From NCBI RefSeq assembly GCF_000014265.1, contig NC_008312.1, forward strand, positions 4,410,001 to 4,442,000: a DNA stretch of 32,000 nucleotides, written 5' to 3'. Under the pieces are notes generated by a model. The model saw only the letters and a list, made by a program, of their open reading frames with translations, was not told the DNA's origin and made no database searches. The DNA comes from Trichodesmium erythraeum IMS101 (GTDB taxonomy: Bacteria; Cyanobacteriota; Cyanobacteriia; Cyanobacteriales; Microcoleaceae). The translations under genes and the position numbers were made by a program. Within the stretch, counting starts at the first letter, position 1. Every line of letters starts with the position of its first letter. Below, piece by piece: positions 2,254 through 32,000 of the stretch.

Positions 2254-2469
2254 GAAGTTAATAGATTGTTTATCAACTATATATTAAAGTTTGAATTTGT
2301 CAGAGATGTCAAACCAACTGTATATCAAAAAAGTAGGAGTTTGGTTATGTAAATTACTATTTTTTTGAGATAAATCTTATTAAGTTATTAGCTATTCCGT
2401 AATTATTTGGTAGACAATTGTAGTAAAAATCAATTAAATTAGAATTTATATGGAGAATTGGATAATATT

Positions 2470-3482: not shown

Positions 3483-4604
<1,122 letters not shown>

Positions 4605-5948
4605 CTAAAATTGACATTATGAAAATAATGGGTGATAATAGTTTATGTAAAGTCAAAAAAATAAGCAAGAAAAAAATATAATAATATTTTGTAATTTAAT
4701 GACCTCAAGAAGTAATAAGCAATAGAATAAAAATTGACTTCTGCAGATTTCAGAGCATCTTAAAAAAATAGAGTAAACATTTAGGTATTAGCATTTAACT
4801 TTTTCTTTCTAAAATTTACTAATAGCTTTTTAATCAGATGTGAATATTAGCTTTTAGTCTTGTATTTTCTTTTCTAAGCTTTTGATAGGAGGGATTTATC
4901 AGTTATTAGGTTTAGAATTTCAAGGTATCTCTAAACTCAATAAAATTTAGCTGATTTTTAGAGCAGGACGAAGATAAAAAAGATCAGTTATTCATCCTTA
5001 AACTTCTCAATTAAATTTTGATTCTCTATATCAAATTTATTTGCGAGAAATATTTTTCCATATTCCGTTTTAGTCCCTAATCTTCTACTCTTTGAAGAAG
5101 CCAGGAAATGGTATGACTACCTCTTCATAATCTCAGTAGGTAGGCACAAAAAAACTTAACTATATTAAGTTTTGTAAATTAACTCCTAGCTCTGACCTAT
5201 AGTTGATATAAGAAAAACTTACATTTTCTTATATAGTGAACATAGTGATAAATTGTAACGGCAACCTACTTAAGCACTCAAGCTGATCATAATAATTCAG
5301 AACTTAAGTAACCTTGAGATCGCTTTTGGCAAGATATGCGACTCCGAGAAAATAGTATCTAGAAACTTGATCAGCTTTTGAGGGATGAGCAAGCGATCGC
5401 CACTTATAATAATAAGTCTTTCTATCCCTATGCTAGTGTCCAACTGCGATTTGGTGTTTCTGAGTGAGTGATCATCATGAAATTATTGACAACATTTTGG
5501 AGTGGGGAGACCAATTTACAATCTCAGTGTAGAGGTTGTGTTTAGACAACTTGCCTGATTTCAACTTCCCATAGACTCCTATCAACTAGTTGGTACTTTT
5601 GCAGCAGGAGGAACTTCTGCAACTGTCTAATGCCAATGAATTTTTACACTTCCCCACGATCGCTTTCATTACACAGTGGAGAAAGCCATAAATTATGATC
5701 TCCACTATTATCTGGGTTCATCAATGTTTAAGTGTGTTGGAGAAGAAAAATACTGAATAACTATCATTACTCAGAAGTACCCACGAGCAAGTTATCTTGG
5801 AACTAATTACAAACAATATGGAAAAGAAAAGCAAATTAAAGAGGCAAAGGAAACCTTAAATTCCCTCACCAAAAGTCTAACATTAGTATAACATAGCAGA
5901 TGGGCAACAGATATGAAATTCACTTCATATGACTGACTTTTCCATTAA

Positions 5949-7862
5949 CTAAACATTAGCAGAAGTTAATTGAAACTGTCGATATTGCACCTCTAAATAA
6001 ACTAATAAAGCATTAATATCCGCCGGATTTACTCCACCAATTCGAGATGCTTGACCAATAGTTAAAGGCTGAACTTTCGATAATTTTTCCCGTGCCTCTA
6101 GGGATAAAGTAGAAATAGATAAATAATCTAAATTAGTAGGTAACCTACGATTTTTTTGACGACTAATTTGATCAATTTGATTCTGTTGTCTTTGCAAATA
6201 ACCGGAATATTTAATATCAATTTCTGCGCCCTCTTTTTCAACTAATTTTAAATCTAAATTCCCCAGATTATACTTTTCCAAATCTACATAATGGAAACCA
6301 GGTCTACGCAACAGATCTGCTAAAGTAATCGAACCCTTAATTTTTGTATGAGTATCAGCGACTATATTAATAGCAACCTCATCTAGTTCTTTAATTCGAG
6401 TTGAATTTAACCTAGATTTTTCAGAATTAATATTAGCTTGTTTACTCTCAAATAACTCCCACCGACGGTCATCAATTAAACCAATTTCTCTACCCAAAGG
6501 AGTTAATCTTTGGTCAGCATTATCCGACCGTAAAATCAAACGATATTCCGAACGACTAGTTAACATTCGATAGGGTTCTCGCAAATCTTTTGTACATAGA
6601 TCGTCAATTAAAGTACCAATATAACTTTGTTCCCGTGGGAAAATAATCATCTCTTCATTCTTAACAAATTTAACTGCATTTATTCCCGCCACAAGACCTT
6701 GAGCTGCTGCTTCTTCATATCCAGTCGTACCATTAATTTGACCAGCACAAAATAACCCTTCAATTTTCTTAGTCATCAACGTCGGATAACATTGGGTAGC
6801 AGGTAAATAATCATATTCTACCGCATAAGCAGGTCGTAACATCAAACAATTTTCTAAACCAGGTAAACTCTGCAACATTTGCAGTTGTAATTTCTCTGGC
6901 AAACCAGTAGAAAACCCCTGAATATAAAGTTCAGGAATATCACGACCTTCGGGCTCAATAAATATTTGATGACTATGTTTATCCGCAAACCGGACAATTT
7001 TATCTTCAATACTCGGACAATAGCGCGGACCTTTCGCATCCACCCACCCACCATAAACAGGAGACAAATGCAAATTATCGCGAATTAACTTGTGAGTTTC
7101 TGGAGTAGTGCGTGTCAGGTAGCAACACATCTGTTCTCTTTCCACCCAGACTTCTGGGTCGAAGGTAAACCAACGTACTTTTTCATCTCCTGGTTGAGCT
7201 TCCAGGTCGGTGTAGTCAACAGAACGTTTGTCAACTCTGGCAGGAGTACCTGTTTTTAGTCGTCCGGTTTCAAAACCAAGTTTATTTAGGGTTTCACTCA
7301 GACCAATAGCAGAAAATTCTCCGGCGCGGCCCGCAGGCATTGACTTATTGCCTACCCAGATAACTCCACCAAGGAAAGTTCCTGTGGTCAGGATGACAGC
7401 TTTACATTTAAAGGCGACGCCGAAGTAGGTTTCAACTCCAATAATTTCCTCGTTATCTCCCAAAACTAAGTCTGTTACCATACTTTCGCGAACTCTGAGG
7501 TTTTCTTGGTTTTCGACAATGTTACGCATAATGGTAGCGTATTCTCGTTTGTCGGTTTGAGCTCGTAACGCCCAAACGGCAGGTCCGCGAGAAGAATTGA
7601 GAATACGTTTTTGCAGGTAGGTGCGGTCTGCCATTTTACCTATTTCTCCACCCAAGGCATCCACTTCATGGGTAAGTTGAGATTTTGCAGGTCCCCCAAC
7701 AGCCGGGTTACATGGTTGCCAAGCAATTTTGTCAAGGTTTAGAGTTAGTAGTAGGGTGTGGCAACCGAGGCGTGCAGTAGCGAGAGCAGCTTCACACCCA
7801 GAGTGGCCTGCGCCTACTACGATGATGTCGTATTCATCTTGGAAGTCAAAAGTTTGGTTCAT
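5949..7862 (-). CDS. mnmG: tRNA uridine 5-carboxymethylaminomethyl modification enzyme MnmG (GidA)
   Basis: 637 aa. N-terminal FAD motif [18 protein letters not shown], then [30 protein letters not shown], and a C-terminal GidA-associated domain ([17 protein letters not shown]). Confidence 0.97.
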
Positions 7863-7955
7863 TTCAGTTATCAGTTATTAGTTATCGGTGCCGACCGCTG
7901 AAGCCGGAAGCTTGAAAACCTGAATTTTCTTTTTCATCCCCTTGAAAGGGGAAGC
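7860..7955. repeat. Dispersed ~90-bp element, copy B, abutting the mnmG start codon
   Basis: Homologous by eye to 1831-1917. It contains the hairpin CCCCTT-ga-AAGGGG (~7937-7950) and the direct repeat GGAAGCTTGA (7907-7916 and 7950-7959). Confidence 0.6.
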
Positions 7956-10292
7956 TTGAGATATGATTTTATGGTTATGGTAAATGTTTTATGGCAATAT
8001 ATCTTAATTTAAGTGTTTGAATATTGGACAAAGTTACTTTAGTTATACTAAATGCAAAAAAGGTTGTTACAGTATTAATTTCTAAATTACCATTAGCATA
8101 TCAAACTACTGTAGCAATATTTTATGAAATTATTATTATTATTATTTAAGCTTATATTATAACATTTATGGTTATATTATTAGTAGTATATAATTTACGA
8201 AAATATTTTTTTATATTGATGAAGGAGGTAGAGGATGAAAAGACAAATAGACATATTTTTTTAAGAAACACCTATATTATTTCTAGATTCTCGTTCAACT
8301 CAGCATGCATATGTTCAATATGGGTGACTACTAAGAAAATTTAAATATTTGCTAGAAGAGTAAGGATATTCTTCAAATGTTACAGAATCACCTTTCTTTT
8401 AAATTAAATAGAATAAAATTTTATCAAATTTTTAAGATGGTAAATAAACTTTTTGACGGTGATTAATTAGAGGTTTTATGCAGATATATTAAAGACGAAT
8501 CTGTGGATTTATGTTTATAGTTCTTCCCTTTAATTATAAGGGTAACTATAATCAAATTTATAATAATTTTGTTCATAATAATAGAGCACAAACACAACCA
8601 TTGATACTTTGATTTGGGATGATTTAGCTAATCAAGGTTGAGCAGGAATTATGGAAATTTACAAATGTAAGTTTAAATGTACATTGACTTTTAAAAGTCT
8701 TGATTTAATCCCAGGTTTAATAAAAGTTTTAGACAAAGATATTTTACTTGCTTATTTGATTAGTATGACTCTACTAGCGGCATAAATTTATTTAGCTTTA
8801 AAACGAATGGTTAGTTTTTATCTCCATTGCAACCCCACAGCGAGTCACTATTTAAGATTAGTATTAGATGTAGTTTTTTGTCCTCAAGGTGGAAATTTTC
8901 AAAATTAAATTATTTGGTGTTAGAAATTAGGAGGTAGACTGCGACATGGTTTTCTTAAAAAACATGAGATAATTTTTTTATATACTAAAAGCAAAGATTT
9001 TAAATTTAGTAAATATATGAGTAAAATTGTGGGTAAAATTTAAATAGTAACTATTCAAGAAATTTTATAATACACAAAACGCCTAGATATTAAGCTGAAT
9101 TATGATTTTTTAAAACCTGCGGAAAAACAAAAATAAACTCAAGGTAATCAGTTAAATTTTAACTGAGATATTGAAGGTTTTAATAAGTCATAAAAAAAGT
9201 ATTATTTAATAATATTCAATATTATCTAAATTTTCTTCAGTTAACATATCAATAATTACATCACAATTTTGTGTTTTTACATCAATAAAGTTTTGAATAT
9301 TTGTTTCAAAAACCTGATAATTTTTACTACTTCCACCTTGTATTGATTACTGATTATTAGATGTTTGGATAAGTAACATTAATAACATCACAAAAGTTGG
9401 GGATTTATCATGAATTATTTAGTAAATTTAGCACCAATATTTGACCAAATATCTAGTCTCAGTAGACAATTACTAGATTCCAAAAAAGAGAATAAAATAA
9501 ATAATAAAATTGTCAAAAATTATGTAGCTAAATTAAGATTAGTAATTTATGATAAAAGATGAAATAGAAAAGCTATGTTGACACTAGATGTGTTTGAAAA
9601 ATCAGCTTACCTCCACCTACCAACAGTACCATTACAAATTAGATTGCTTTGTGATTGAATGGTGAAACATGATAATTTTTAACCTTTTTCTAGTGAAATA
9701 TATAAATCTTTAGCTGTACCAATTTTTAGTTAAGTTTAATCATACTTATAGTAATTATCAAAAGTATTGCCATTTTTGAAAAATTGGAAAAATAACTTTT
9801 TTTTCATCCAACTAATAATATGTTCAAAACAGAAAAATTAAGTATAGCAAAGTTTATCGTAATTAGTATTAAAAAGAAACCGTTTTATGAGAATAAATTC
9901 CCAATTTTTGTTAGCTTGAATCTGTAATACTCGGTTTGGAATGAATTATTGTATAACCTTGGCAGTCGCTGAAATTTTCAAGGTTATAAATTTTTAGATA
10001 GTCTCAATAGATATTTTTTTTAATGTTATTGCTCAAAGAAAAAGTAGGCTTTACAAATTATTTTATAGGAAAAAAGTGTTAGGTTTTAGGTCTCAAAAAA
10101 ATTATCTTAGAACTTACGAAGAAACAGGCTTATGAGACGAAATTTCTCATGAGCGCTGTATAGAATAATTAGAGCAATAAATCTGTTTCCTTGTTTAAGA
10201 GCCTAAGTCCTGAATTTTTCATGAGTGTCTTACTGATAACAGGTGACTAACTACCTATTACCTAACACATAAGACAAAATCTGTCTCTAGGA

Positions 10293-18759: not shown

Positions 18760-19377
18760 ATGTCTTACAGTGAATTTACTCTCTCACAATTAGAATCTGA
18801 ATTTAATCTTATACTTCAGCAAAGAGTAGAATTATTCAAGTCAATAGAATCTGTAAATCCTAGTGCTTTACTGAAAGAAATTTTAGCTGAAAATATTCCT
18901 TTAGCATTAGAAATTGATACAGAAAAAGCACGTTCTGAATTGATTATTTCTCCAATTATAGTCGAACTTAGAAAATATTTTAATCGCCAAATTAGTTTAT
19001 TTTCTGGAACAGAATTTAATGTAGATAAATCTAAAGGATTAACAGGAAGATGTGACTTTTTAATTAGTTATTCTCCCAAACAATTAGAAATAACTGCCCC
19101 TGTGGTGACAATTGTTGAGGCAAAAAACGATAATATTAAATCTGGAATAGCCCAATGTATAGCAGAAATGCTCGCTGCTCAGTTATTTAACCAACAAAAA
19201 AACAATCAAATTTCTTGTATTTATGGAATTATTACAACTGGCAGTAATTGGAAGTTTTTAAGGCTGAGAAAAAACCAAGTTGATATTGAAGCATGGGAGC
19301 ATTTTATTGGTAATTTAGAGGATTTATTGGGGATTTTAATTTACATAATTAAAGAGGCAGTAGGGTTCAAAAATTAA
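18760..19377 (+). CDS. Hypothetical protein with a PD-(D/E)XK nuclease-type motif
   Basis: Intact 205-aa ORF. The motif GRCDFLIS...(x22)...IVEAKND fits the D...(D/E)xK restriction-endonuclease-fold signature. It resembles the small HSDR_N-like proteins common in cyanobacteria. Confidence 0.55.
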   Translation: MSYSEFTLSQLESEFNLILQQRVELFKSIESVNPSALLKEILAENIPLALEIDTEKARSELIISPIIVELRKYFNRQISLFSGTEFNVDKSKGLTGRCDFLISYSPKQLEITAPVVTIVEAKNDNIKSGIAQCIAEMLAAQLFNQQKNNQISCIYGIITTGSNWKFLRLRKNQVDIEAWEHFIGNLEDLLGILIYIIKEAVGFKN

Positions 19378-19544: not shown

Positions 19545-20116
19545 TTAGAGGGATTTTGAGAGTAGTATCCTGATAGTTATGGTCGATTTTAATTAAGTAA
19601 CGGAGAGATTTTTCAACTGCAAACTACTGGAACCCATGAAAAAGTAGCTGGTTTTCTGGCTTTGGAACTAGGTGTGGAAATTAAACGCTTAAACTTGCCT
19701 TTTTTTACCCTATACAGGAATTAATTAAAGCTATATATTCCGATAAATATGCTTATATTTCTGAGGTGATGGTTTTGGATAAAAATGCTATGGCTCAGGA
19801 GTCAATGTGGAACAAGCGATCTACTATTACTAAAGGTATGAGTATTAAATTAGCGGAAGAAGTAGTAAGTACTAATTGGCAAAATAGTTATTTAATTAAG
19901 CTGACAGAATATGAAAAGTTAGGTATAAACGAATATTGGATAGTTGATTATTTAGGGTGGGGAGGTAGGCGCTATATTGGAGACTTGAAACAAGCAACTA
20001 TTTCGGTTTATAATTTAGTTGAAGCTGAATATGTGCTGAATTTATTTAGATATCAAAATGTGGTGGCTTCACCTACTTTTCCAGAACTTAATTTGATTGC
20101 TGAACAAATTTTTTAA
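19545..20116 (+). pseudogene. Uma2-family (DUF820) endonuclease, disrupted
   Basis: The C-terminal 116-aa ORF (19766-20116) carries the Uma2 blocks GINEYWIVDY and FPELNLIAEQIF. The N-terminal half is in another frame with stops: LEGF-stop, Y..F-stop-LSNGEIFQLQTTGTHEKVAGFLALELG...LYRN-stop. Confidence 0.65.
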
Positions 20117-20304: not shown

Positions 20305-22779
20305 CTATATTGAATTTTCTAAAGATTTTAAGATCGACTTTAAAGTTTCTGAAAAAAATTCAGGAGAACATTCAGTTTGAACTCGCTTTATGGCATTTTT
20401 TCTCAGTTTATTCCATAAGCTTGAATCTTGATAAAGCTTGACACATTGTTGAGTAAAATTTATTGGATCATCGCTAACTAATAATTCTGTTTCATGTTTC
20501 CATCCTAATTGTTGAGCAATTAAGGATGTGGTAACAATAGGTAAACCGTAAGCTGCTGCTTCATGTACTTTATGAGGAATTCCTGCTGCATATCGAGTGG
20601 GAGCTAGAAATAATCTCGCCTGATTATAAAATGGTCTGATATCATCTACTTTTCCTAAAATTTTGATTGATGTATTGTTTAAACTATTTACTTTTTGTTG
20701 AATTTCTTCTACAGTATTATTCCCAATAATTATTAATTCAACATCTTGAGTTAGTTGTTTCTGAATTAGAGGAAATATTTCAGAAGTTAGCCATAAAATA
20801 GAATCAGCATTGGGAGATTCTTTTTCATAAACTGAACCCACAAATAAGAAATTTTGTCTTGACAAAAAAGATTGAGGTGTGGGATAAACAGACAGAGAAT
20901 GACCTAACAAGCTGACATTGGCATAGTTTTGCTCAATAAATTGTTGTTTTTCTGGGGAGGAAACGGTGATAATATGATGGCTATTTTTTGCCAGTTTAAT
21001 TTCTTCTTTAATGGCTGTTTGACGTTCTATTTCAGTAAAATAAGTTTGATTTAAACGTTTATATTCATAGTCTCGAATGCTAAAAATTGCTTCAGCATCA
21101 TAAATAATTTTTGCTGATTTGAGTAAATTTTCTTTAACTAAAATAGAGTTTAAATGTTTGATATTGTGAGGGCGACTAATAAAAACTAAATCATAGTATC
21201 CTTTGCGTTCTCTTAAAAAATCTTCTAACATAATTAACCCATATCCTCGCATAACTTCAACAGTTTGGGGAATATCGGCATAAACAGTTGACCAATCTTC
21301 GAGATGACGCAGATCCCCTGGGTAAAGGGTAACAAAATAGCCTAATTTAACAAGATTACAGAGAATAGAATGACTGCGAGTATAACCTGGACCTAACCAA
21401 GGATGAGGAATTCTATCATCAATAAATAATATGGGTTTTGGTCTTTCTCTAGCTTGAGTTCGAGCAAATATTAAATTCTTGAGTTCGGTAAGATATTGAG
21501 ATGAAAACCAGTCTTTGTGTTTTTGTTGAAATATCTTTTGATTTTTTTCCATCAGAGCGCTCGCCTGCTCGCTTGAACCTGTATGACTGGAACTAGCAAA
21601 CTCATAATGGAGAATATTTACATTGGGGTCGTAAATAATTTTTTTTCCTAATTTTTGCAGTCGCACACAATAGTCGGTTTCCTCAAAATAAGCTGGTTGA
21701 TAATCTTTATCAAACCCTTCTAATTGTAAAAACAAATCTCGTCGAGTTAAGAGAAAAGCTCCCGAACAATAATCAACAGCACGTTGAAATTGATATTCTG
21801 GTGCAGTGGGTAAGTTTCCACGTCCATATCCTAAGCAAGTTCCATCTTGCCAAATAATACTTCCTGCTTCTTGGAGAGTGCCATTGGGAAGGATTAGTTT
21901 TCCACCCACTGCACCAATATCATCTGAAGATTTAATAGTTTCGAGAGCGGAGGGGATACTATTACCTAAAACTTGAGCATCATTATTTAAAAATAGGAGA
22001 TAGTCTCCTTGGGCAATTTTGCTACCTTGGTTACATCCCAGAAGATAATGAAGATTTTGATGATTCAGGGTAATTTTGGCCCCGTTTATCTGTTGTAACA
22101 GTTGACGGGTGGTATCAGTGGAGTTGTTATCGACTAATATCAGTTCAAAAGATTGAAAGGGGTTTCTCAAAAGGGAATATAAGCAGCTTAAAGTTATTTC
22201 TGCTCGGTTATAGAGAATAATAATGATGCTAATTTCTGGATTTTCAACCAGGGGAAAGTTTAGTTGAGAGTTGGTATTGAGGAAGCTATCAAGAGTGATT
22301 TGGTTAAGAGTATCAAGAGTTTGTTTTGCTTGGTCTAGTTGGGGGGTTTGGGGGAGAGAAGGGTCTGGGGATCTAATGGTGGAATTTGGAGCACATTGAA
22401 AACTCTCTGCTAAGGGATGGTGGGGTTGCAGTTGGAGAACTTTTTGATAGGCGAGTTGAGCTTTGTCGAAGAATCCTTTTTTGGTCAACGCTTTTCCTAA
22501 GCCCAGGTAAACCTCGGCGTCATTGGGAGAAATTTCTAATGTTTGATAGTAGGTTTGTAGATCGTCTGGGTTTTGTTGAATTTTCTGTTTGTAATAGTTC
22601 AGCAGATTGGTTTTTTCTGCTTTTGCTTGTTGTTGTAGAGCATCCCCGATTTTTTTGTGTATTCCTGGGAGGTTGGGGTTGAGTTCGAGGGCGCGTTGGT
22701 AGGCAGCGATCGCTTCTGACCAGCTCTGATTCTTGTAGAAATCTTTGGCTTCTTCTAGGTAATTTTCACAAGTTTTCAT
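20305..22779 (-). CDS. Tri-modular TPR / GT2 / GT1(GT4)-like glycosyltransferase
   Basis: 824 aa. The N-terminal ~125 aa are TPR repeats (AIAAYQRALELNPN..., AEVYLGLGKAL). The GT-A/GT2 block has ISIIIILYNRAEITLSCLYSL, ELILVDNNSTD, YLLFLNNDA and YFEETDYCVR. The C-terminal GT-B block has ILFIDDRIPHPWLGPGYTRSH and RLFLAPTRYAAGIPHKVHEAAAYGLPIVTT. Confidence 0.85.
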   Translation of the reverse strand: MKTCENYLEEAKDFYKNQSWSEAIAAYQRALELNPNLPGIHKKIGDALQQQAKAEKTNLLNYYKQKIQQNPDDLQTYYQTLEISPNDAEVYLGLGKALTKKGFFDKAQLAYQKVLQLQPHHPLAESFQCAPNSTIRSPDPSLPQTPQLDQAKQTLDTLNQITLDSFLNTNSQLNFPLVENPEISIIIILYNRAEITLSCLYSLLRNPFQSFELILVDNNSTDTTRQLLQQINGAKITLNHQNLHYLLGCNQGSKIAQGDYLLFLNNDAQVLGNSIPSALETIKSSDDIGAVGGKLILPNGTLQEAGSIIWQDGTCLGYGRGNLPTAPEYQFQRAVDYCSGAFLLTRRDLFLQLEGFDKDYQPAYFEETDYCVRLQKLGKKIIYDPNVNILHYEFASSSHTGSSEQASALMEKNQKIFQQKHKDWFSSQYLTELKNLIFARTQARERPKPILFIDDRIPHPWLGPGYTRSHSILCNLVKLGYFVTLYPGDLRHLEDWSTVYADIPQTVEVMRGYGLIMLEDFLRERKGYYDLVFISRPHNIKHLNSILVKENLLKSAKIIYDAEAIFSIRDYEYKRLNQTYFTEIERQTAIKEEIKLAKNSHHIITVSSPEKQQFIEQNYANVSLLGHSLSVYPTPQSFLSRQNFLFVGSVYEKESPNADSILWLTSEIFPLIQKQLTQDVELIIIGNNTVEEIQQKVNSLNNTSIKILGKVDDIRPFYNQARLFLAPTRYAAGIPHKVHEAAAYGLPIVTTSLIAQQLGWKHETELLVSDDPINFTQQCVKLYQDSSLWNKLRKNAIKRVQTECSPEFFSETLKSILKSLENSI

Positions 22780-22948: not shown

Positions 22949-23884
22949 TTAGACAACCTCTTTCAAGACTTCTTGCCACTGTGCAATAAATTTATCAATA
23001 TGAAAAACATTTTTTGCCATATTACGAGAATTATGACCAATTCTTCTAGCTTCCTTTGGATTATAATAGAGAAACTTTAAATATTCATAAAGCTCAGACA
23101 TATTATTAGAAGCATAACCATTTTCACCATTAACAATGTACTCACTTTCACCATGAAAATTAGTCGTCACTAGAGCCATACCACATAACATTGCTTCAGT
23201 CCTAGCTCTTGGATTTGGTGATGCGTATGAGGGGCTAAATAGGATTGAGGAGGTAGAGAGAAAAGTCCTATATTTACTAAATGAGCTAAATTTGTAATCT
23301 CTTCCAATCCAGTCAACTTTTATGCCCGTTTTTTCTTCAAATTTAATCACTGCATTGTTGTTACGATATTCATTATGTATTTTCCCTGGAGGTTGATTAA
23401 CAACTATATTTCCACGACCATAATTACTTTGAGGCCATTCTTCAGGACTCATCCCATGACGAATAAATCGGGAATTTTCTATACCCCAAAGGTGATGAGC
23501 CGTGCTGCTATTACACACCATAAAATTATCGCCTATTAACTCTTTAATTTCTTCAGAAGTACAACCATCAACCATGTTACAGCCATGATTAATGATTATT
23601 TTTTTGCCTTTGTACATATTACGATAACGCAAAAATAGTAACCGTTTATCTAATTCATGCCAAGTCCACTGATCTACATGCAAAATCATTAAATCTGTTT
23701 CTACTGATTCTATATTATTGGCAAATTTTACATATGGTGGAATAGGTCTGTAATTTACATTCCAGCGACGATGAGTGTTCGTTAAAAATATCATATTGTG
23801 AGGTAATTTACACAACTCATAATCATGGGCAACATGCCAGGGATATTTAATAATATTCAACCTTGCTTTAAGCGATATTTGCAT
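22949..23884 (-). CDS. Glycosyltransferase, GT1/GT4-like
   Basis: 311 aa. The C-terminal block SPNPRARTEAMLCGMALVTTNFHGESEYIVNGENGY matches the retaining GT4 nucleotide-sugar binding region. The N-terminal half is atypical. Confidence 0.7.
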   Translation of the reverse strand: MQISLKARLNIIKYPWHVAHDYELCKLPHNMIFLTNTHRRWNVNYRPIPPYVKFANNIESVETDLMILHVDQWTWHELDKRLLFLRYRNMYKGKKIIINHGCNMVDGCTSEEIKELIGDNFMVCNSSTAHHLWGIENSRFIRHGMSPEEWPQSNYGRGNIVVNQPPGKIHNEYRNNNAVIKFEEKTGIKVDWIGRDYKFSSFSKYRTFLSTSSILFSPSYASPNPRARTEAMLCGMALVTTNFHGESEYIVNGENGYASNNMSELYEYLKFLYYNPKEARRIGHNSRNMAKNVFHIDKFIAQWQEVLKEVV

Positions 23885-23939: not shown

Positions 23940-24800
23940 CTAAATTTTTCTAGCCAATATTCTAATAGCAGAGGCAACACGATTTTGATTCATTGCCTCA
24001 TCTATTGTGTCAAATATATTTCTATATTTAACTTCGTACTTTGATAGTATGTTTTGTAATAAATAGCTAATAAATATAGCCAAAAGTGGTTCTGCCTTAA
24101 CTTTAGCATATATACCCGAACTTCTAATTATTTTTAATAATTCTGTATCACCTTCATGGTATGAATAATACCCGCTATCTATGATTTCAAATCCAAGATT
24201 GCCTAATCTATCAATCATTCTTTTTCGAGAAAAACCTAAATGGTAGTGCTTATGTTTATCCCACTGCCTTTTTCTTTCGTTTACTAAATAATCCGAAGAT
24301 TCTTGTTCATCCTTTTCTGAATAATGTGGAGTATCTACATAAATATATCCTCCAGGCATAACACAAGAACTTAAGTTGACAAGCGCACTTTGATAATCTT
24401 CTATGTGTTCCAAAGTTTGTATTGAAAAAGTATAATCAAACTTTGATTGCAAATTGCTCCACTCATAATGATCTAAATCTACGTCTACAAACTCAATATT
24501 GTTATTCTCAAGTATATAATTCCAATTATATTTAGGTATATATTTTGAAGATTTATCGAAACAAAACATCTGCATATTAGGAAATGCTTGACTAAGAAAT
24601 ACTTCATGTGAGCAACTTCCAGAGCCAAAACTTCCAGCTTTTCTTGGTTGGATATTATATTTAGTTATATAATCAAGCATTGGCACATAAGATAATAGTA
24701 ACCTGACCAAAGTTTCAGTAAAGAAACAAGACATATGGTTTGATGATTGTTCTATACATTTTTTGAATACTTCTATATTATTTCTCTTAATTTTTTGCAT
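23940..24800 (-). CDS. Class I SAM-dependent methyltransferase
   Basis: 286 aa. Motif-I-like SFGSGSCSHEV, acidic FCFD, a TLEHIEDY block and a VMPGGYIYVDTP post-motif. Confidence 0.7.
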   Translation of the reverse strand: MQKIKRNNIEVFKKCIEQSSNHMSCFFTETLVRLLLSYVPMLDYITKYNIQPRKAGSFGSGSCSHEVFLSQAFPNMQMFCFDKSSKYIPKYNWNYILENNNIEFVDVDLDHYEWSNLQSKFDYTFSIQTLEHIEDYQSALVNLSSCVMPGGYIYVDTPHYSEKDEQESSDYLVNERKRQWDKHKHYHLGFSRKRMIDRLGNLGFEIIDSGYYSYHEGDTELLKIIRSSGIYAKVKAEPLLAIFISYLLQNILSKYEVKYRNIFDTIDEAMNQNRVASAIRILARKI

Positions 24801-24854: not shown

Positions 24855-25520
24855 TTAAATCTTCTTCACCACCATACCAAACAATTTGAAATATAACTGG
24901 TAGGTAGAATTGCGAGCTAAATCACTAATTTTCCAAGGCCAAGCACGGTAAACATTAATATACCAAGTGTCTAAAGGAAAAACCTGAGACAGCAGATTAA
25001 ACATCTTTTCTGGAGTCATTGCTGTTTTATGATGATGTGGATTAGTAGATTTTGGTTTGTAGTAAGGAAAATGATCTGGAATATACCTACATTCTTTAAC
25101 TTCTGGCAAGGGTTTTAGGGTTTCATCCCAATGCTCAAAATTGGGAGTTGTGCAAGCAAACATTACATTGGTAGCTGCTTTAATTTTTTCCAGAAAGATT
25201 AATAAATCATTTTCTGGTATATGCTCCAAAACTTCCAATGCCAAAGTTAGATCGGCTATCTTCAGAGGTGATTGTATAATATCTGAGTATGTATTAATAT
25301 TCCTTGCAAGTAACTTACTTGATATATTATTGTCAAGTTCTATGCAAATATAATCTTTAGCATTTTTCGCCTTATTGTATTTTTTAAACCAATCATGTAA
25401 CGGGTTATTGCCAGGTCCAAACTCAATACAAGAAGAAAAGGATAAATTTTTCTCTTTAGCAGTTTGGTCGATTATTTTAATCAGGTTATATTCTGATGTT
25501 TGCATAATATATTGTTTCAT
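24855..25520 (-). CDS. Class I SAM-dependent methyltransferase (Methyltransf_11/23-like)
   Basis: 221 aa. Motif I IEFGPGNNP, ICIELD, and LALEVLEHIPENDLLIFLEKIK followed by FACTTPN. Confidence 0.65.
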   Translation of the reverse strand: MKQYIMQTSEYNLIKIIDQTAKEKNLSFSSCIEFGPGNNPLHDWFKKYNKAKNAKDYICIELDNNISSKLLARNINTYSDIIQSPLKIADLTLALEVLEHIPENDLLIFLEKIKAATNVMFACTTPNFEHWDETLKPLPEVKECRYIPDHFPYYKPKSTNPHHHKTAMTPEKMFNLLSQVFPLDTWYINVYRAWPWKISDLARNSTYQLYFKLFGMVVKKI

Positions 25521-25623: not shown

Positions 25624-28600
25624 TCATCTTGATTTCTTTTTGAGTCTGTTAAGTTCATCATTTAATATATCTATTTTTTCTAGTGCAGATGTGAAAGATA
25701 TGGGTAAAACATCAGGAAAATTGGTAACTATATCCTGAATAATATCATGCTTGATTCGCCTCCACTGATTTGTGATATCAGGCATCTGTGGCGGAATTTT
25801 AGGAGGAAATATTTCCAACCATTTTACATATTGCCTAGATAAATTACTATCTATATCACTGTTTCCTCTCAATACTACAGGAATATTTACATAACAACAG
25901 TTATTTTTCTGTTGATTATTTAATGCCAAAAGTGTAATGTTCCAACCCCAATAGTTAAGTTGTGTTTGAATTAGAGGAATATAAGGTTTTACCCAACTAC
26001 GCTTAATTAGCATAACATCAGGTGTATTCGGATTGATCATGAATTTAATCCCATCAAATATTGAATTTGATTGAATATCTGGCAAGCACCCATAAGATTG
26101 AACCTTTAGTAGTAAAACGGGTTCTGCATCTGATTTACTTAAATGTCGATCTAACTCTTCATAGATACCTTGAGTTAAAATACAATTTCCAGAAACTAAT
26201 AAAATCCAATCTTGGTTTGCTTCTATTATAATTTGTTGAAAATATTTGAAAATTTCTAAGTAATCATTTTCAGGGAATAAATACTGAAATCCGTGCTTTT
26301 CTATTTTTAGTTCTTGCTCATAAGGAGTAGTAGCTACAATATATTGACTACCAAAATCTGACCAGTTGACCTCTGACTCCTCTATGCAAGTAGTAAAAGT
26401 TTTTGTCACAGAGTAGTCATAAATCAAAACTGCAACTTGGGATAAAAAGTTTTTTTGATAAGTTTTAGTAAAATTTCTTTTTACTTGAGTTGGTATCCAG
26501 CGTTTTCGACTACCAAGCACATTATTAAACCAGTTTTTTGTAATCTTTTGAGTTGAATATATCTCTAATGCACGTTGACGTGCAACCAATATTTCTTCTT
26601 GTACCTGGGCAAAATTTGTTTTCAGATAAGTCAGCTTTTCATTCCAATTACCATCGTAGTTCACTAAAAAATGGTTACCCAAATTAAATTCTCTAGCTAC
26701 TCTCCTATGTTCTGGTGTTGCAGTTGCTAATACTGGTACACCTAAAGCAATAGCTTTAATCATGCGATTGGCATTTTTAGCTAGGTTCCATTCTGTAGGT
26801 TCAAGAGGAAATATCAGAAGATCGAACTCCGTCAAAGTCTGATCGACAGTATTGATCTCAAATTCAATATCCCCCCCTTTAGTAATGGTTGTAATTTTTT
26901 CCTCAATGTTTACATTTTTAATCTGTAAAATCCCCTCAGGAGCGCCAAACCAGGCAATATTTTTCAGCTCAGGAGTTGGTTCTCTAACTATATCATCTGT
27001 GTTGATATCGACTGGGTTCTCTAAAACAAATACATTAGGATGATATTTATTGGCAAAATCAGCTAATAATTGACTACCAACTGTAACTACATCAACTGAA
27101 TTCATAAATGCTACTAACTCTTCTTGTGTTCCTTGATTAGGTAAAACATAATTATCATCAAAATCGTAAACAACCACTTTGTTTTCATGTTTGAGTTCTC
27201 TAAGTTGCATTTTTGATCGATCATTAAGTTGATCGAAAAGCCGAAGTTTCTGAAATACATAAACATCACTCTTGTCACTATAACCAATAGTGACTAGATG
27301 ACCTGCTTTGCGAAGGCAATCTACTAGTTTCCAAGTCCTAAGTCTAGCGCTAGCTTTAGAGTAATTACCAAAAGGAAAAAAGGAAAAATTAATTGGTTTA
27401 AAGCCACTACTTGCATCTATAACTATTAATTCAGAAAATGCTAACCACAAATTTCCAGCACTGGTTGTCGGTAGGTTAATATAAAACCCTATATGTACTT
27501 CTTCAGGTAAATTCTTGACTACTTTGTTGAGGTTAATTGATATATTTGTGGTTGACCAGCCGAAATTACTATGGACTTTAGTAGAGAGTTGATAAATTTT
27601 ATTAGTCAATTTATCGTCAGCAAAAATAGCTATGACTATTTCCGATCTATTAGTATTTTGCAAACAAAGTTGTACAGAGCTTGTAATAATGGTATCTTCA
27701 AATATTTTAATACCTCTAACAATTTGACGTAAATAAGATCTGGGATTAGTTTGTTTAACATCTTGAGTTTTAATATAAAAAAAACTATCATTATCAACCA
27801 GTTCTTTGTTTATTTCAGGTATCTCTTTATTACGAACAAATTGAGTTGCAACTTTCCACTCAGGTCTTATTACTAATTCCCAGTCTCTAGGAGCAATATT
27901 ACCCTCACAAATGTTAAGTTCTTCTAAATTAAGGAATTGTGGATTAGATAAAAGATTTTTTTTTGTTGTAGAAAAAACCGTTTTTGTTTGGGTGTTGTTT
28001 TGAGTATCAAACTGTAGTGAATCTTGTTTGTTTTTTTCTACTTCCTGAGTTTGAAATTGAGAGTTTAATTTAGCTGCCTGACGAAATGCATGGAACGCTT
28101 GTTCCAATCCTCCTACCTGCATCGTTTTTTTTAAGTTGTGGCGAGACCAGACGAAAATATCGGGATTTTTATCTATAGCTTTTTGATATGCTAAGATTGC
28201 CTTTTCTGATTGACCTTTTGCAATCCAAGCATGACCTAATCCCAAATATAATTCAGCATCATCTGGCTTAATTTCTAAAGCCTTTTCATAACTTTTCACA
28301 TCTGTCGGATCGTTCCTGATCCCTTGCCGATAATAACTTAATGCTTGCTCTAATTTCCCTTGAACCTGCTGATGCAATGCTTGATTTAATTTTTCCTCTA
28401 CTTCAGGAGAAAAATCAGGCTGAATCTCCATGAATCGACGATAAGCATTCACTGCTTCATCCCATTTTTCTAAAAGGAAACAAAGCTCTGCTAAGTTATA
28501 ATAAGACCAAGCAAAATTTGGTTCTAGATAGATGGCTTTTTGATAATATTTTATTGCTTCATTCAACTTCCCTAACCTGACTAAAACATCCCCTAAATTA

Positions 28601-31600
28601 TTATAAGACCAAGAAAGATCGGGCTTTAATTCTATCGATTCATTATAAGCAGCAATTGCGTCTTCTAACTTTCCTATTTCTTGCAATAAATTACCTAATT
28701 TATGATGTACTTCCCATGATTCCGGTTCCATTTCAACGGCTTTTCTATAAACCTTTATTGCCTTTTCTTTCTCTCCTTTTTCTACCAAAGTATCACCTTG
28801 TAAATGGTAATATTCTGCAAAATTTGCATCTACTTTAATTGTGTTATTAACAGCAATTTTTTCTAAATCTGACTTACTTTGTGTAGCTAATATTTTCCCA
28901 AACTGCCCCGCCTTTGTTAACTTCTTATTAGCTTCTTGCTGCTGTTTAGCATTAGCTATTTTTTCCTGAAGCTGATTTTCCGCATCTGCTAAATACTGTT
29001 TTATATCTTTCCTGTCAGGATCTAATTTAATTGCTTTTTGGTAAGCAGCGATCGCCCCTTCCCAATCTTCCAACTTCACCAACACATCTGCCAACTTATA
29101 ATAATTCCAAGGAAAATCAGGATTCAACTCAATAGCCTGATGATAAACACTCTTGGCTTCTGGCCACTTCTCTAACTTAACTAAAACATCCCCCAAATTA
29201 TTATAAGACCAACAAAAATCAGGATTTAACTCAATAGCCCGACTATAAACACCAGTCGCCTCCGACCACTTCTCTAACCTAACTAAAACATCCCCCAAAT
29301 TATTATAAGACCAACAAAAATCAGGATTCAATTCAATAGATTTCCTATAAGCATTAGCAGCCGTTTCTAACTCCTCTGTTTCCTGGAACAAACTACCTAA
29401 TTTATGATGCACTTCCCATAATTGAGGCCGAATTTCAATGGCCTTTCTGTAAACCTTTATAGCCTCTTCTTTCTCCCCCTTGTTTCTTAAAGCATCACCC
29501 AAATACTGATAAGCATCAACAAAATCTGGGTCTATTGCAATTGCTTTGTAGTAAGCATTTATTGCTTGGGAAAGTTCCCCTACCTTGGCCAAGATGTCAG
29601 CCAATTTAACATAAGACACAGAAGAGTTGGGATTTAATTTTATGGCATGACCATAAGCCGAAATGGCCTCGGAAAATTTTTCTTGTTTAATTAAAATATC
29701 CCCTAAGTTATGATGAGGTTCCCAGAGATTTGGTTGAATTTCAATTAATTTTTCATAGAGAATTACTACTTTTTCTAATTGGTTTTGGTTGACTAAAATA
29801 TTAGCTAAAGAGTAGTAAGCCTCTGTCAAGTATGGCTCAATTTCAATAGCTTTACGGTAATAAGAAATAGCCTCTTCTAATTTTCCTGGTAAAAGAGCTA
29901 ATATATTTCCCATCTCATAATTAGCACCTGAGTCGTTAGGATTTAGTTTCAGTGCTTGAGCATAACAATTAATAGCATTATCTAATTGATTTTTCTGTTG
30001 AAAAGCTTTCCCCATTATCTGATAAGCTTCTGAGTTTTTTTCAACTTTAATTACTGAATAGCAGATAGCGATCGCCTCAGAAAACAATCCTTCTAAATAA
30101 TAAGTCTTAGCTTGTTTTAATAGTTCTTTAACTTCTGCTTTTTGAGAATAATTAATCTGATTTGTCACTATCTGATTCAACTGCAGTAATTCACCACTTT
30201 TCCGTTCAATTTCTGCTGCACTTAGTTGATGACCATTCTGATATTTATCTTCTAATTTTGCTGAGATATTAAAATTCACATCACCCTTTAAACTCTTCTG
30301 ATTTTGATTTTTATTTTCCCAAACTTTATCTTTAATTTCTGCTGAATTTAGTTGCTCACCATTCTCGTATTCAGCTTCTAACTTAGCTGAGATATCAGAA
30401 TTCATATCAACCTTTAAACTCTTCTGATTTTGATTTTTATTTTCCCCAACTTTATCTTTAATTTTTGCTGAATTTAGTTGATAACCATTCTCGTATTCAG
30501 CTTCTAACTTGGCTGAGATATCAGAATTCATATCAACCTTTAAAGTATTCTGATTTTGATTTTTATCTGCCCAAATTTCCTTAGCTTTATGGTAATAAAT
30601 AACTGCTTCATCCCATCTTCCGAGACATTTTAATCCCAAACTAAGATTATAGTAAACTGTACCCAAATTAGGATTTAACTCTATAGAATTTTGATAACAA
30701 GATACTGCCTGAGCAATTTTTCCTTTCTCATACAATTTATTTCCTAAATTAAAATGGTCATTAGCAGTTACTTTTTTAGGTTCTAAAGAGTAAGCTTGGT
30801 ACCAAAAATCTAGAACTCCTAATGTTTCACCTAACTCAGTCAAAACCATCGCTAATTTGTAATAATTCTCAGCCACCTTTAGTTTTATTTCTAACGCTTT
30901 TTCATAACAATAAATCACCAAATTCAAAATTTTATACTCAACATATAAATTGCCTAATACTATATAAATTAAACCATAACTTTGCTGAATTTCCAGAGCT
31001 GTTTTGTAACTGCTCTCAGCTTGTTTTATTTCCCCAATTTTTTTCTGAGAATCTCCGATAATTATGTAAGCTGCTGCTACATCTATTTTAAGAGAAATCG
31101 CTTGCTGACATTGAGAAATTGCTTTTTCATAAAATCCCTCCTCATAATATTTTTGAGCTTCCTGAATATAAACATTAGGAATATTTCTCACACCATTAGA
31201 TGTCATATCTTTTAAAAGAAACGTTGAATTTATTTGTTTTACCTCATTGACTTTGGAAATTTCTTTCAGTTTTAAAGTGGAGTGAATAATCTGATTATTA
31301 TTAGCTTTTTTTGGACTATTCATAACGGTTTTTTCTCCCTCTATATTCCCATAAACATTAGTGACATCTGCTTCGATGATTAGAGGTTTATTGGGAGCTA
31401 AAGTTTTCGTAATTTCCTTATAGTTTGTAACCCTTTTATCCTGACTATTTTCTAACACAGATAAAGATGATTCTAGATAATTAACAGAGTCCGATAAATC
31501 ACTTTTTAAATCAAAAGTTGATATCACTCTACTAACTCCTTTACTAACAACTCTTTGAAAATTTTCAGGTTTCTGAATAATATGAATTGTATCATCAGCC

Positions 31601-32000
31601 CGAACCTGCTGAATTATTCCCTGACTATTTTGGTGATTTTCTCCTATTAGTAAATTGAGAGAATTTTCGAGATTTTGCCAATAATTAGGAAACACTTTTG
31701 TAGTAGGTTTCTTTGTTCCTTGCAGTTTTAATGCTTCCCCTAAACTTTCATAAGCTCCTAATAAATTAGGATTTAATTCTATCGCCCGACAATAGCACGA
31801 TATTGCTTGAGAAATTACCTTTTGTTGCAGCAGACTATTTCCTAATATTAAATGTTCTTCTGCTGTAGCTTTTCCAGGCTCTAAACTGTAGGCTTGATAC
31901 AAACAGTTATCACCTTTTGTCTTCTTACCAACTTTTCTCCAAGCTATAGCTAGTTGACGGTAAGCATCAGCATAATTTGGCTGGATAACCAAAGATTTTT
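25624..32000 (-). CDS. Giant TPR-array protein with C-terminal beta-rich, GT-B-like and GT-A-like modules (5' end outside the window)
   Basis: The frame is open to the window edge: the track 'M' at 31992 is a TTG, and the preceding codons read KS. TPR blocks lie at ~31990-31700, 31140-30570 and 30130-28100. A non-TPR spacer lies at 31700-31140. In-frame 42-aa repeats lie at 30564-30187. A beta-rich region lies at ~27950-27420. The GT-B-like module (~27400-26560) includes NANRMIKAIALGVPVLATATPE. The GT-A-like module (~26470-25750) includes VAVLIYDYS and DWILLVSGNCIL. The tail is coiled-coil. Confidence 0.85.
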   Translation of the reverse strand, partial: KSLVIQPNYADAYRQLAIAWRKVGKKTKGDNCLYQAYSLEPGKATAEEHLILGNSLLQQKVISQAISCYCRAIELNPNLLGAYESLGEALKLQGTKKPTTKVFPNYWQNLENSLNLLIGENHQNSQGIIQQVRADDTIHIIQKPENFQRVVSKGVSRVISTFDLKSDLSDSVNYLESSLSVLENSQDKRVTNYKEITKTLAPNKPLIIEADVTNVYGNIEGEKTVMNSPKKANNNQIIHSTLKLKEISKVNEVKQINSTFLLKDMTSNGVRNIPNVYIQEAQKYYEEGFYEKAISQCQQAISLKIDVAAAYIIIGDSQKKIGEIKQAESSYKTALEIQQSYGLIYIVLGNLYVEYKILNLVIYCYEKALEIKLKVAENYYKLAMVLTELGETLGVLDFWYQAYSLEPKKVTANDHFNLGNKLYEKGKIAQAVSCYQNSIELNPNLGTVYYNLSLGLKCLGRWDEAVIYYHKAKEIWADKNQNQNTLKVDMNSDISAKLEAEYENGYQLNSAKIKDKVGENKNQNQKSLKVDMNSDISAKLEAEYENGEQLNSAEIKDKVWENKNQNQKSLKGDVNFNISAKLEDKYQNGHQLSAAEIERKSGELLQLNQIVTNQINYSQKAEVKELLKQAKTYYLEGLFSEAIAICYSVIKVEKNSEAYQIMGKAFQQKNQLDNAINCYAQALKLNPNDSGANYEMGNILALLPGKLEEAISYYRKAIEIEPYLTEAYYSLANILVNQNQLEKVVILYEKLIEIQPNLWEPHHNLGDILIKQEKFSEAISAYGHAIKLNPNSSVSYVKLADILAKVGELSQAINAYYKAIAIDPDFVDAYQYLGDALRNKGEKEEAIKVYRKAIEIRPQLWEVHHKLGSLFQETEELETAANAYRKSIELNPDFCWSYNNLGDVLVRLEKWSEATGVYSRAIELNPDFCWSYNNLGDVLVKLEKWPEAKSVYHQAIELNPDFPWNYYKLADVLVKLEDWEGAIAAYQKAIKLDPDRKDIKQYLADAENQLQEKIANAKQQQEANKKLTKAGQFGKILATQSKSDLEKIAVNNTIKVDANFAEYYHLQGDTLVEKGEKEKAIKVYRKAVEMEPESWEVHHKLGNLLQEIGKLEDAIAAYNESIELKPDLSWSYNNLGDVLVRLGKLNEAIKYYQKAIYLEPNFAWSYYNLAELCFLLEKWDEAVNAYRRFMEIQPDFSPEVEEKLNQALHQQVQGKLEQALSYYRQGIRNDPTDVKSYEKALEIKPDDAELYLGLGHAWIAKGQSEKAILAYQKAIDKNPDIFVWSRHNLKKTMQVGGLEQAFHAFRQAAKLNSQFQTQEVEKNKQDSLQFDTQNNTQTKTVFSTTKKNLLSNPQFLNLEELNICEGNIAPRDWELVIRPEWKVATQFVRNKEIPEINKELVDNDSFFYIKTQDVKQTNPRSYLRQIVRGIKIFEDTIITSSVQLCLQNTNRSEIVIAIFADDKLTNKIYQLSTKVHSNFGWSTTNISINLNKVVKNLPEEVHIGFYINLPTTSAGNLWLAFSELIVIDASSGFKPINFSFFPFGNYSKASARLRTWKLVDCLRKAGHLVTIGYSDKSDVYVFQKLRLFDQLNDRSKMQLRELKHENKVVVYDFDDNYVLPNQGTQEELVAFMNSVDVVTVGSQLLADFANKYHPNVFVLENPVDINTDDIVREPTPELKNIAWFGAPEGILQIKNVNIEEKITTITKGGDIEFEINTVDQTLTEFDLLIFPLEPTEWNLAKNANRMIKAIALGVPVLATATPEHRRVAREFNLGNHFLVNYDGNWNEKLTYLKTNFAQVQEEILVARQRALEIYSTQKITKNWFNNVLGSRKRWIPTQVKRNFTKTYQKNFLSQVAVLIYDYSVTKTFTTCIEESEVNWSDFGSQYIVATTPYEQELKIEKHGFQYLFPENDYLEIFKYFQQIIIEANQDWILLVSGNCILTQGIYEELDRHLSKSDAEPVLLLKVQSYGCLPDIQSNSIFDGIKFMINPNTPDVMLIKRSWVKPYIPLIQTQLNYWGWNITLLALNNQQKNNCCYVNIPVVLRGNSDIDSNLSRQYVKWLEIFPPKIPPQMPDITNQWRRIKHDIIQDIVTNFPDVLPISFTSALEKIDILNDELNRLKKKSR
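29163..29328 (-). repeat. Near-identical adjacent 102-bp TPR units (recent internal duplication)
   Basis: 29163-29226 and 29265-29328 differ at about 2 of ~65 positions, and a 46-nt block is identical. Both encode AIELNPDFCWSYNNLGDVLV(R/K)LEKW. Confidence 0.85.
30187..30564 (-). repeat. Three in-frame 126-bp (42-aa) tandem repeats inside the giant TPR gene
   Basis: The marker AAACT/AAAGT recurs at 30290, 30416 and 30542, an exact 126-bp period. The encoded unit is KNQNQ.(S/T)LK.D.N..ISAKLE..Y.NG.QL..A.I..K..E. Confidence 0.9.

Follow-up and report, generated by a model that had tools for sequence, protein, structure and literature searches.

What is the role of a bacterial protein in which long arrays of tetratricopeptide repeats (TPRs) are joined to a C-terminus resembling glycosyltransferases (GTs)? 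The question is raised by a giant open reading frame (ORF) of Trichodesmium erythraeum IMS101, a marine cyanobacterium; it runs on the minus strand across the edge of the 32,000-nucleotide stretch analysed here (assembly GCF_000014265.1, contig NC_008312.1, positions 4,410,001 to 4,442,000; hereafter the window, with positions counted from its first letter). Judging from the order of locus tags, after Tery_2849 to Tery_2852, the gene is probably Tery_2853. Giant TPR-glycosyltransferase fusions are common in filamentous cyanobacteria and their function is unexplained. As a nitrogen fixer, Trichodesmium has global importance; the glycans on its surface shape how colonies form and how the organism interacts with epibionts. 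In the literature we found no study of Tery_2850-2854.

The TPR-glycosyltransferase fusion as such is of a known kind; its C-terminal module, which we call X, belongs to a rare uncharacterised family. An earlier note, made from the letters of the DNA, described the ORF as a TPR scaffold with a multi-module glycosyltransferase-like end and overlooked its conserved operon partners: a small GT4-like glycosyltransferase, which we call Y, and two methyltransferase-type genes, M1 and M2. Because X always occurs with Y, and methyltransferases stand in the operon, we suggest from the sequence that the giant protein is most likely part of a machinery building a methylated surface glycan. The giant is thus reduced to a concrete testable unit, the rare and conserved X-Y pair with its methyltransferases, and a TPR-free form of this unit exists in other phyla with easier genetics.

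Folds and conservation of module X

Module X comprises the last ~750 amino acids (aa) of the giant protein; it was modelled as part of the last 828 aa, within which its residues are numbered. Given an alignment of homologues as input, AlphaFold2 modelled these 828 aa with a pLDDT (predicted local distance difference test) of 86.9 and a pTM (predicted template modelling score) of 0.87, and resolved them into a linker (residues 1-75), a beta-sandwich, a domain of two Rossmann halves, an alpha/beta domain and a helical tail (Table 1). When compared with the PDB by Foldseek, the sandwich resembles CBM4, CBM22 and the ligand-binding domain of ephrin receptors; it is optional, being present in about one third of family members (occupancy 0.34). 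The two-Rossmann domain, mostly modelled at pLDDT above 90, matches ManT (7QSG, E=8e-9), GlgM, PimA, BshA, SenB and GtfC, with a probability of 1.00 to many GT4 structures and target-normalised TM scores of 0.51-0.65 to GT4 enzymes. For the last 289 aa, modelled alone at pLDDT 90.1, all 50 of the 50 matches listed are GT-A glycosyltransferases (E=1.5e-7, target-normalised TM up to 0.67), WrtF, SpsA, TarS, TarP and hyaluronan synthase among them. The possibly carbohydrate-binding beta-rich region, the GT-B-like module and the GT-A-like module of the earlier note are thus all recovered by modelling, the first of them as a CBM4/CBM22-like sandwich at fold level.

Glycosyltransferase folds in the C-terminal ~830 aa are found by structure searches, and sequence profiles stay below threshold. 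The GT-B domain scored 14.5-14.6 bits with Glyco_trans_1_4 of Pfam (cut-off 27), and the last 289 aa matched no glycosyltransferase family of Pfam, GT2 included, even at E<=1. NCBIfam returned no family for the module, and phmmer and profile searches of the PDB no glycosyltransferase, only chance matches to inositol monophosphatase (E ~1.2). Weak links to the GT-B clan appear among 44 family members, with Glyco_trans_1_4 found in 12 of them (best E=1.1e-6) and Glyco_transf_4 in 5.

The two glycosyltransferase folds differ greatly in conservation. Across 75 family members, 120 of ~300 columns are conserved at 70% or more in the GT-B domain, and only 17 of ~200 in the GT-A-like domain. The former carries the motifs FGD..ASSRLR, QK.RPF, YDFDD, DVVTVGS, ENP.D, WFG, T.GGDIEF, WNLAKNANRM.KA.ALG.P.L and TPEH. 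Residues R256, R258, Q287, K288, D316, D318, D319, D340, N365, D368, D423, D430, K445, N446, N448, R449 and K452 are invariant, and the window protein keeps all invariant columns of the family. The likeness to the GT4 enzymes ManT (7QSG), PimA (2GEJ), GlgM (6TVP) and BshA comprises the two-Rossmann fold (target-normalised TM 0.51-0.60), an interdomain turn of the ENPxD/NGVD type and a C-terminal helix ending in ..A.A.G.PV... Identity to these enzymes is, however, 10-13%, X has no PDB relative by sequence, and the EX7E motif is replaced by AKNANRMxK (aligned segment WNLAKNANRMIKAIALGVPVL). By motif register, the first Glu of EX7E falls on A444 and the second on the invariant K452, whereas partner Y retains the Glu (RTEAMLCG). 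Since conserved polar residues extend across the GT-B domain but Lys stands for the EX7E Glu, we think that the domain is probably an active enzyme whose donor site is unusual; it is not demonstrably a member of GT4. Falling outside every curated family and carrying a basic motif where EX7E would stand, it represents a candidate new glycosyltransferase family.

The GT-A-like domain gives a different picture. Strand four of its central sheet (residues 96-101 of the 289-aa model) lies in the segment DWILLVSGN, in which the letters SGN stand after the strand, where DxD is expected, as the earlier note had read. Homologues have PSG, ESN, PEG, HAG or PPG there (family consensus L..PxG) and no member has DxD; the only acidic column conserved at 70% or more, D616, lies outside the DxD site. 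The lack of DxD in the whole family, together with the poor conservation, makes catalysis improbable, and we regard the domain as most likely a non-catalytic structural or binding part; what the earlier note had offered as a possibility is strengthened by these counts. WrtF is a GT-A enzyme independent of metal, and yet its DxD site reads G-A-D-D and its catalytic Asp66 and Asp167 are conserved (PMC12595478); family X has no conserved acid at the DxD site. With WrtF, SpsA, TarS and TarP our domain shares the GT-A fold, and with WrtF also the succession of a GT-A and a C-terminal helical domain (PMC12595478). The domain would be a further example of a degenerate glycosyltransferase domain kept as a structural part. 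Another such chain is known from the heparan sulfate polymerase EXT1-EXT2, where a GT-B domain is followed by GT-A and one of them is inactive. Foldseek aligns it with X over 499-579 columns, but with a root-mean-square deviation of 21-23 Å, so the domains match and their arrangement does not; there is no sequence relationship.

Distribution of family X and its partner Y

Among 5.8 billion proteins, the last 828 aa found 74 relatives with 23-52% identity, nearly all of which stand alone, at 600-815 aa, and have no Pfam domain. Of 1.84 billion representative proteins scanned with HMMER, 99 matched at E<=1e-30 (531 at E<=1e-10), and only one other protein exceeded 2,000 aa. The giant protein itself was absent from the matches of all protein searches made. 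Hosts are mostly represented by metagenomes and include Alphaproteobacteria, Chloroflexota, Verrucomicrobiota and others. We define family X by the GT-B core motifs ASSRLR, QK, YDFDD, WFG and AKNANRMxK, the GT-A-like domain, the tail motif (E/D)LP....QW.R and an adjacent Y. The window protein shows all of these, its Y being encoded three genes downstream. The domain order seen by the earlier note is therefore shared by homologues as far as the GT-B domain, the GT-A-like domain and the tail are concerned, and the TPR arm is missing from nearly all. The standalone proteins resemble the Trichodesmium module in these three parts, in the presence of Y and in nearby methyl- or sulfotransferases; they differ by lacking the arm, many of them lack the beta-sandwich as well, and several are encoded beside ABC-transporter (ATP-binding cassette) genes.

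The association with Y is strict. Y is found within 10 kb, usually adjacent, in 15 of 15 distinct loci whose X has both the GT-B and the GT-A-like domain; ~300-aa standalone proteins related to just the GT-B domain occur without it. Y (~320 aa) is much more highly conserved than X, with 78-79% identity in cyanobacteria and 47-64% in Proteobacteria and others. The Y family is also sharply bounded, since identities of 45-79% are followed by a gap down to 29-37%. We considered the GT-B domain of X as a paralogue of Y and rejected this (hhalign probability <1%).

Beside X-Y pairs one usually finds genes homologous to M1 and M2 or else sulfotransferase genes, and further GT4 and GT2 enzymes recur. 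M1 homologues are placed between Y and X in other phyla, and M2 is 39-45% identical to the methyltransferases of related loci. An ABC ATPase with its permease occurs in seven loci, all carrying TPR-less X homologues, and individual loci encode a KpsC/S-like protein, GT-C enzymes and GtrA. With methyltransferases, glycosyltransferases and ABC exporters beside X and Y, this neighbourhood is, by its predicted gene content, a signature of polysaccharide or glycolipid assembly.

Two peculiarities of alphaproteobacterial members deserve mention. X homologues P0011, P0040 and P0046 (alignment A1, columns ~1380-1480) have a coiled-coil-like end followed by (A/R)S.SWR(L/V)(T/S).P(L/M)R; the window protein lacks this motif, which may be a membrane- or partner-binding tail. 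In one locus (L033) a 1,978-aa protein without Pfam domain (530-6466) is encoded ~3.5 kb upstream of X, beyond GT4 and ABC-transporter genes.

Proposed function of the giant protein

The analysis shows the reading frame, the folds, the pattern of conservation, the synteny and the spread of the family; from these we infer a catalytic activity with its donor and acceptor, a cooperation between X and Y and a role for the TPR arm. With moderate confidence, we lean towards a TPR-scaffolded glycan-assembly protein whose catalytic GT-B domain, together with Y and the methyltransferases, would act on a methylated glycan, while the TPRs dock enzymes or a partner. The product of the giant gene would be a soluble, cytoplasmic, multi-domain component of a glycan-assembly operon; no transmembrane-like segment was found in the whole protein (highest Kyte-Doolittle mean over 19 residues, 1.45). 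Its working end would be X, composed of an optional CBM-like sandwich, a presumably catalytic GT-B domain, a non-catalytic GT-A fold and a helical tail. X would act together with Y, and one or two methyltransferases would modify the product, so that a methylated glycan is added to or extended. In other phyla, X and Y form part of polysaccharide loci with ABC-transporter export. In Trichodesmium, as in a few of its filamentous relatives, long TPR arrays have been fused onto X and onto the operon's other glycosyltransferases; most plausibly, they would link these enzymes with one another or tether them to a further protein. An intracellular pathway of polymethylated polysaccharide, suggested by ManT as the top match and by the two methyltransferases, was not adopted, because ManT barely exceeds other GT4 enzymes and homologous loci carry export genes.

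Four points weigh against this model. The place of the EX7E Glu is taken by an invariant Lys, so that the chemistry or the donor of X may differ from classical GT4 enzymes, or there may be no sugar transfer at all. No sequence model reaches its threshold for X (best Pfam score 14.6 bits; NCBIfam and PDB empty). Neither the window nor the two cyanobacterial loci with giant orthologues contain a transporter, a lipid-carrier enzyme or a flippase. Finally, environmental contigs show 26 nonsynonymous against 24 synonymous variants, a ratio that speaks for only modest purifying selection.

One alternative is that the protein is a TPR-directed protein glycosyltransferase of the OGT or SPINDLY kind, in which the TPR superhelix binds proteins, the GT-B domain glycosylates them and the methyltransferases and other glycosyltransferases elaborate the sugar. 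In OGT and family GT41, too, a TPR superhelix at the N-terminus precedes a GT-B region, the GT41 enzymes HMW1C and AaNGT are also listed by Foldseek (E ~1.4e-7), and the lack of transporter and lipid-carrier genes in cyanobacterial loci fits this alternative, as may the 1,978-aa protein encoded upstream of X in locus L033. The structure is, however, closer to GT4 (0.51-0.65) than to GT41, for which target-normalised TM is only 0.28-0.30, and Pfam finds no Glyco_transf_41 in the giant protein. X adds a beta-sandwich and a GT-A-like domain to the OGT plan, nearly all its homologues lack TPRs, and the ABC-transporter, KpsC/S-like, GT-C and GtrA genes of homologous loci are typical of polysaccharide or glycolipid pathways. 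We consider glycosylation of proteins unlikely.

To a similarly low degree we believe that X carries, in place of a classical glycosyltransferase, a GT-B domain that is either another group transferase (with a phosphate-containing or acidic donor, for instance) or a non-catalytic, acceptor-binding activator of Y. GtfB acts on GtfA in such a manner, and so do the inactive domains within EXT1-EXT2. The basic AKNANRMxK with its invariant K452, opposed to the Glu kept in Y, fits this explanation, as do the failure of X to reach any glycosyltransferase profile threshold, the clearly degenerate domain that X already contains and the co-occurrence with Y without exception. On the other hand, both Rossmann halves contain invariant or nearly invariant polar residues, about 30 in all, which is typical of a working cleft and not of a pseudoenzyme, and the ~300-aa GT-B relatives mentioned above occur without Y.

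A broader proposal, for which we would claim still less, is that X constitutes a new transferase family on a GT-B scaffold, marked by the basic motif in place of EX7E, and together with obligate Y and methyl- or sulfotransferases forms a hitherto unrecognised, phylum-spanning module that primes or caps ABC-exported glycans; in Trichodesmium, the spacing or recruiting done by coiled coils in assemblies of the WbdD/WbbB type would then have passed to the evolvable arm of TPRs and tandem repeats.

The TPR arm and its origin

Residues of the giant protein are numbered from the window edge, the first visible codon (31998) being aa 1. Pfam recognises in it only families of the TPR type (TPR_11 with 419.6 bits in 17 stretches, TPR_1 with 374.2 bits in 19), and a scan of repeat register counts ~22 clear and several weaker repeats, about 27 in all. 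They form four blocks, designated A to D in Table 1, and not the three of the earlier note, which was right about repeats and interruptions as such. The non-TPR spacer that it put at ~190 aa measures 182 aa, and the 3 x 42-aa charged repeat is confirmed by Tandem Repeats Finder (TRF; 30208-30575, period 126, 2.9 copies, 90% matches). Its coiled-coil-like break exists as a 64-aa K/A/Q-rich non-TPR stretch, of which only ~35 residues are a possible helix, followed by Gly. Pfam matched no family in the spacer, the repeat or the break, and the sole database match of the spacer is a 166-aa fragment of the same gene. As candidates for an extended coiled coil there are only the 64-aa break and the terminal helix of ~26 residues, although no coiled-coil predictor was run.

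Fusion of TPRs to X is confined to filamentous cyanobacteria. Outside Trichodesmium, X is part of giant ORFs only in Microcoleus sp. CSU_2_2 (locus L007) and in Oscillatoriaceae cyanobacterium Prado104, a metagenome-assembled genome (locus L008). The X modules of these orthologues share 47-50% identity with ours over ~810 aa, and the downstream order M1, M2, Y, TPR-GT2-GT4 is identical. The giant ORF of the relatives (ORF2) consists, however, of a TPR block, a GT2 domain, two PF13524 (CgeB-like) domains and X, and Trichodesmium lacks these ~1,000 aa of glycosyltransferase domains. The long TPR array of the relatives is encoded by a separate ORF1 of 1,891-1,912 aa, situated 82-170 nt upstream, while in Trichodesmium the array is in frame with X.

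Block D is the orthologue of the TPR block of ORF2 (49-50% identity overall, 60-65% in its distinctive non-TPR tail), and in Trichodesmium X follows it after a 90-aa linker. The first 102 aa, containing block A, match best the TPR array of ORF1 (52-55% identity). The break at aa 997-1060 has the same position as the ~60-aa non-TPR leader of ORF2. The simplest reading of these comparisons is that, in Trichodesmium, an ORF1-like gene was joined in frame to an ORF2-like one, and that the internal GT2 and both PF13524 domains were lost. A caveat is that the distal part of block C (aa 817-986) is in its turn a paralogue of the block D unit; for this reason we softened the idea that the break is purely a former ORF boundary.

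ORF1 occupies positions 91-5829 in Microcoleus (1,912 aa) and 60-5735 in Oscillatoriaceae (1,891 aa). The Microcoleus ORF1, the only one scanned with Pfam, has a long TPR array on either side of a GT61 domain (aa 626-835). By analogy, the Trichodesmium protein may carry a GT61 domain beyond the window.

The earlier note speculated that the arm could act as a molecular ruler, by analogy with WbdD and WbbB; such a ruler would set chain length by spacing a terminator from polymerising glycosyltransferases. In O-antigen synthesis, known rulers combine an extended coiled coil, a terminator at its distal end and an ABC transporter (PMC11231755). The giant protein shares with the coiled-coil rulers (WbdD/WbdA, WbbB, Klebsiella pneumoniae O4 and O7) the build of a multi-module cytoplasmic glycosyltransferase protein, a long non-catalytic arm and methyltransferases nearby. 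The X-Y unit of other phyla is linked to ABC transporters and to methyl- and sulfotransferases, which are chain-capping kinds of enzymes, and one terminator of K. pneumoniae O4 has a TPR-like bundle beside its coiled coil (PMC11231755). Recent expansions of repeats in the arm (102-bp and 126-bp tandems) indicate that its length can evolve. Nevertheless, the arm is made of TPRs, it is specific to the lineage and missing from most family members, which are mostly standalone proteins of 600-770 aa. The window contains no extended coiled coil (the possible helix of the break has at most ~35 residues), no terminator domain at the visible far end and no ABC transporter, and the last is missing from the cyanobacterial loci too. 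In the orthologues, the arm belongs to a separate ORF, and ~1,000 aa of glycosyltransferase domains stand between the proximal TPR block and X. Moreover, one environmental variant, described below, has a frameshift and a stop in the arm. The analogy with WbdD and WbbB thus finds no support, and we regard a ruler as quite improbable.

Integrity of the reading frame

Read on the minus strand from 31998 to the stop codon at 25624-25626, the frame counts 2,124 sense codons, and it remains open where the window ends. With a stop probability of 0.083 per codon at the local base composition, such a run would arise by chance with a probability of ~1e-80, in full agreement with the earlier note, which held an uninterrupted 6.4-kb frame to be beyond chance. 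Eleven environmental contigs with 98.9-100% identity cover codons ~908-2125 without stops or indels, two of them being 100% identical to the window. Their pooled distinct variants, 24 synonymous and 26 nonsynonymous, indicate an intact gene that is apparently under modest purifying selection. All ten short-read metagenome contigs compared end at window positions 29040-29198, right at the 3' boundary of the 102-bp tandem or beside it. As they all break at this TPR tandem, the giant gene is systematically truncated in public assemblies.

Beyond the window edge the sequence was lengthened by a single contig; two exact-match scans of JGI (Joint Genome Institute) metagenome contigs came back empty. 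This contig (L041; 1,367 nt, 99% identical), reached through the 166-aa database fragment of the giant gene, overlaps window positions 31034-31991 and adds 409 nt past position 32000. The added part holds only sequence of the TPR type, at least 136 more residues, with the frame still open. At the window edge the contig has a 4-nt deletion (AAATGGTTATCC against AAATCTTTGGTTATCC) causing a frameshift, and a TCG-to-TAG change at 31492-31494 (codon 169). Its substitutions are 7 nonsynonymous and 3 synonymous. Either these lesions are errors of a low-coverage contig, or that population can do without the distal arm and is losing it.

A decaying fusion or a mis-assembled repeat, for which the lesions of this contig and the regular breakage of short-read assemblies in the tandem could be quoted, is the least credible explanation of the giant frame, given its stop-free length, the 11 independent intact contigs, the two that are identical with the window and the intact orthologous ORFs of 2,171 and 2,177 aa.

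The locus and its other features

The giant ORF opens a cluster of five genes on the minus strand, followed by M1, M2, Y and a TPR-GT2-GT4 protein, with intergenic gaps of 54-169 nt. The last of them is 62-64% identical to the final gene of the Microcoleus and Oscillatoriaceae clusters. Exact protein look-up further identified MnmG (ABG52015) and acetolactate synthase (ABG52017) in the window. Scans of the window for Rfam families, tRNAs, promoters and terminators gave nothing above background.

Table 1. Coordinates of the giant gene, its parts, its operon partners and its orthologues (window positions unless a locus is named; aa counted from the window edge, module residues within the last 828 aa).
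Feature	Position	Strand	Description	Basis
Giant ORF	25624..32000	-	2,124 codons visible, N-terminus beyond the window	
TPR block A	31726..31998	-	aa 1-91; at least 2 repeats, runs past the window edge	register scan
Non-TPR spacer	31180..31725	-	aa 92-273 (182 aa); N/K/S-rich, no recognisable domain	
TPR block B	30565..31179	-	aa 274-478; ~6 repeats	Pfam and register scan
3 x 42-aa charged tandem repeat	30187..30575	-	aa 479-604; KNQNQxSLKVDMNSDISAKLEAEYENG.QLNSA.IKDKV.EN	
TPR block C	29011..30135	-	aa ~622-996; ~11 repeats	register scan
102-bp tandem duplication	29072..29339	-	near-identical copies of one TPR, within block C	TRF
Non-TPR break	28819..29010	-	aa 997-1060 (64 aa); K/A/Q-rich, contains LADAENQLQEKIANAKQQQEANKK	
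TPR block D	28156..28818	-	aa 1061-1281	register scan, orthologue comparison
Linker	27883..28155	-	Q/N/T-rich, predicted disordered	model pLDDT 36-60 over residues 1-70
Beta-sandwich	27415..27879	-	module residues 78-232; jelly-roll	AlphaFold2 and Foldseek
GT-B domain	26506..27393	-	module residues 240-535; divergent, conserved core of family X	AlphaFold2 and Foldseek
GT-A-fold domain	25861..26448	-	module residues 555-750; degenerate, SGN at the DxD position	AlphaFold2 pLDDT 90
Helical tail	25624..25860	-	(E/D)LP....QW.R motif, terminal long helix, then stop codon	AlphaFold2 and conservation
M1 (Tery_2852)	24855..25520	-	221 aa; weak class-I methyltransferase-like	
M2 (Tery_2851)	23940..24800	-	286 aa; SAM (S-adenosylmethionine)-dependent methyltransferase	
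Y (Tery_2850)	22949..23884	-	311 aa; small GT4-like glycosyltransferase, constant partner of X	
Tery_2849	20305..22779	-	824 aa; TPR-GT2-GT4 fusion, final same-strand cluster gene	
Orthologue, Microcoleus sp. CSU_2_2	L007 5912-12445		2,177 aa	
Orthologue, Oscillatoriaceae cyanobacterium Prado104	L008 5906-12421		2,171 aa	

Elsewhere in the window, a region of ~2.4 kb (7863-10292) has a G+C content of 24-25%; its ORFs all fall short of 80 aa, and neither a tRNA nor an Rfam family was matched in it. Two small plus-strand ORFs (18760-19377 and 19766-20116) lie immediately downstream of the glycan operon. One of them resembles a truncated Uma2-family endonuclease (E=2.4e-12, with only profile positions 81-169 matched) and the other gives a faint PD-(D/E)XK match; the two may be remnants of mobile or defence-related genes.

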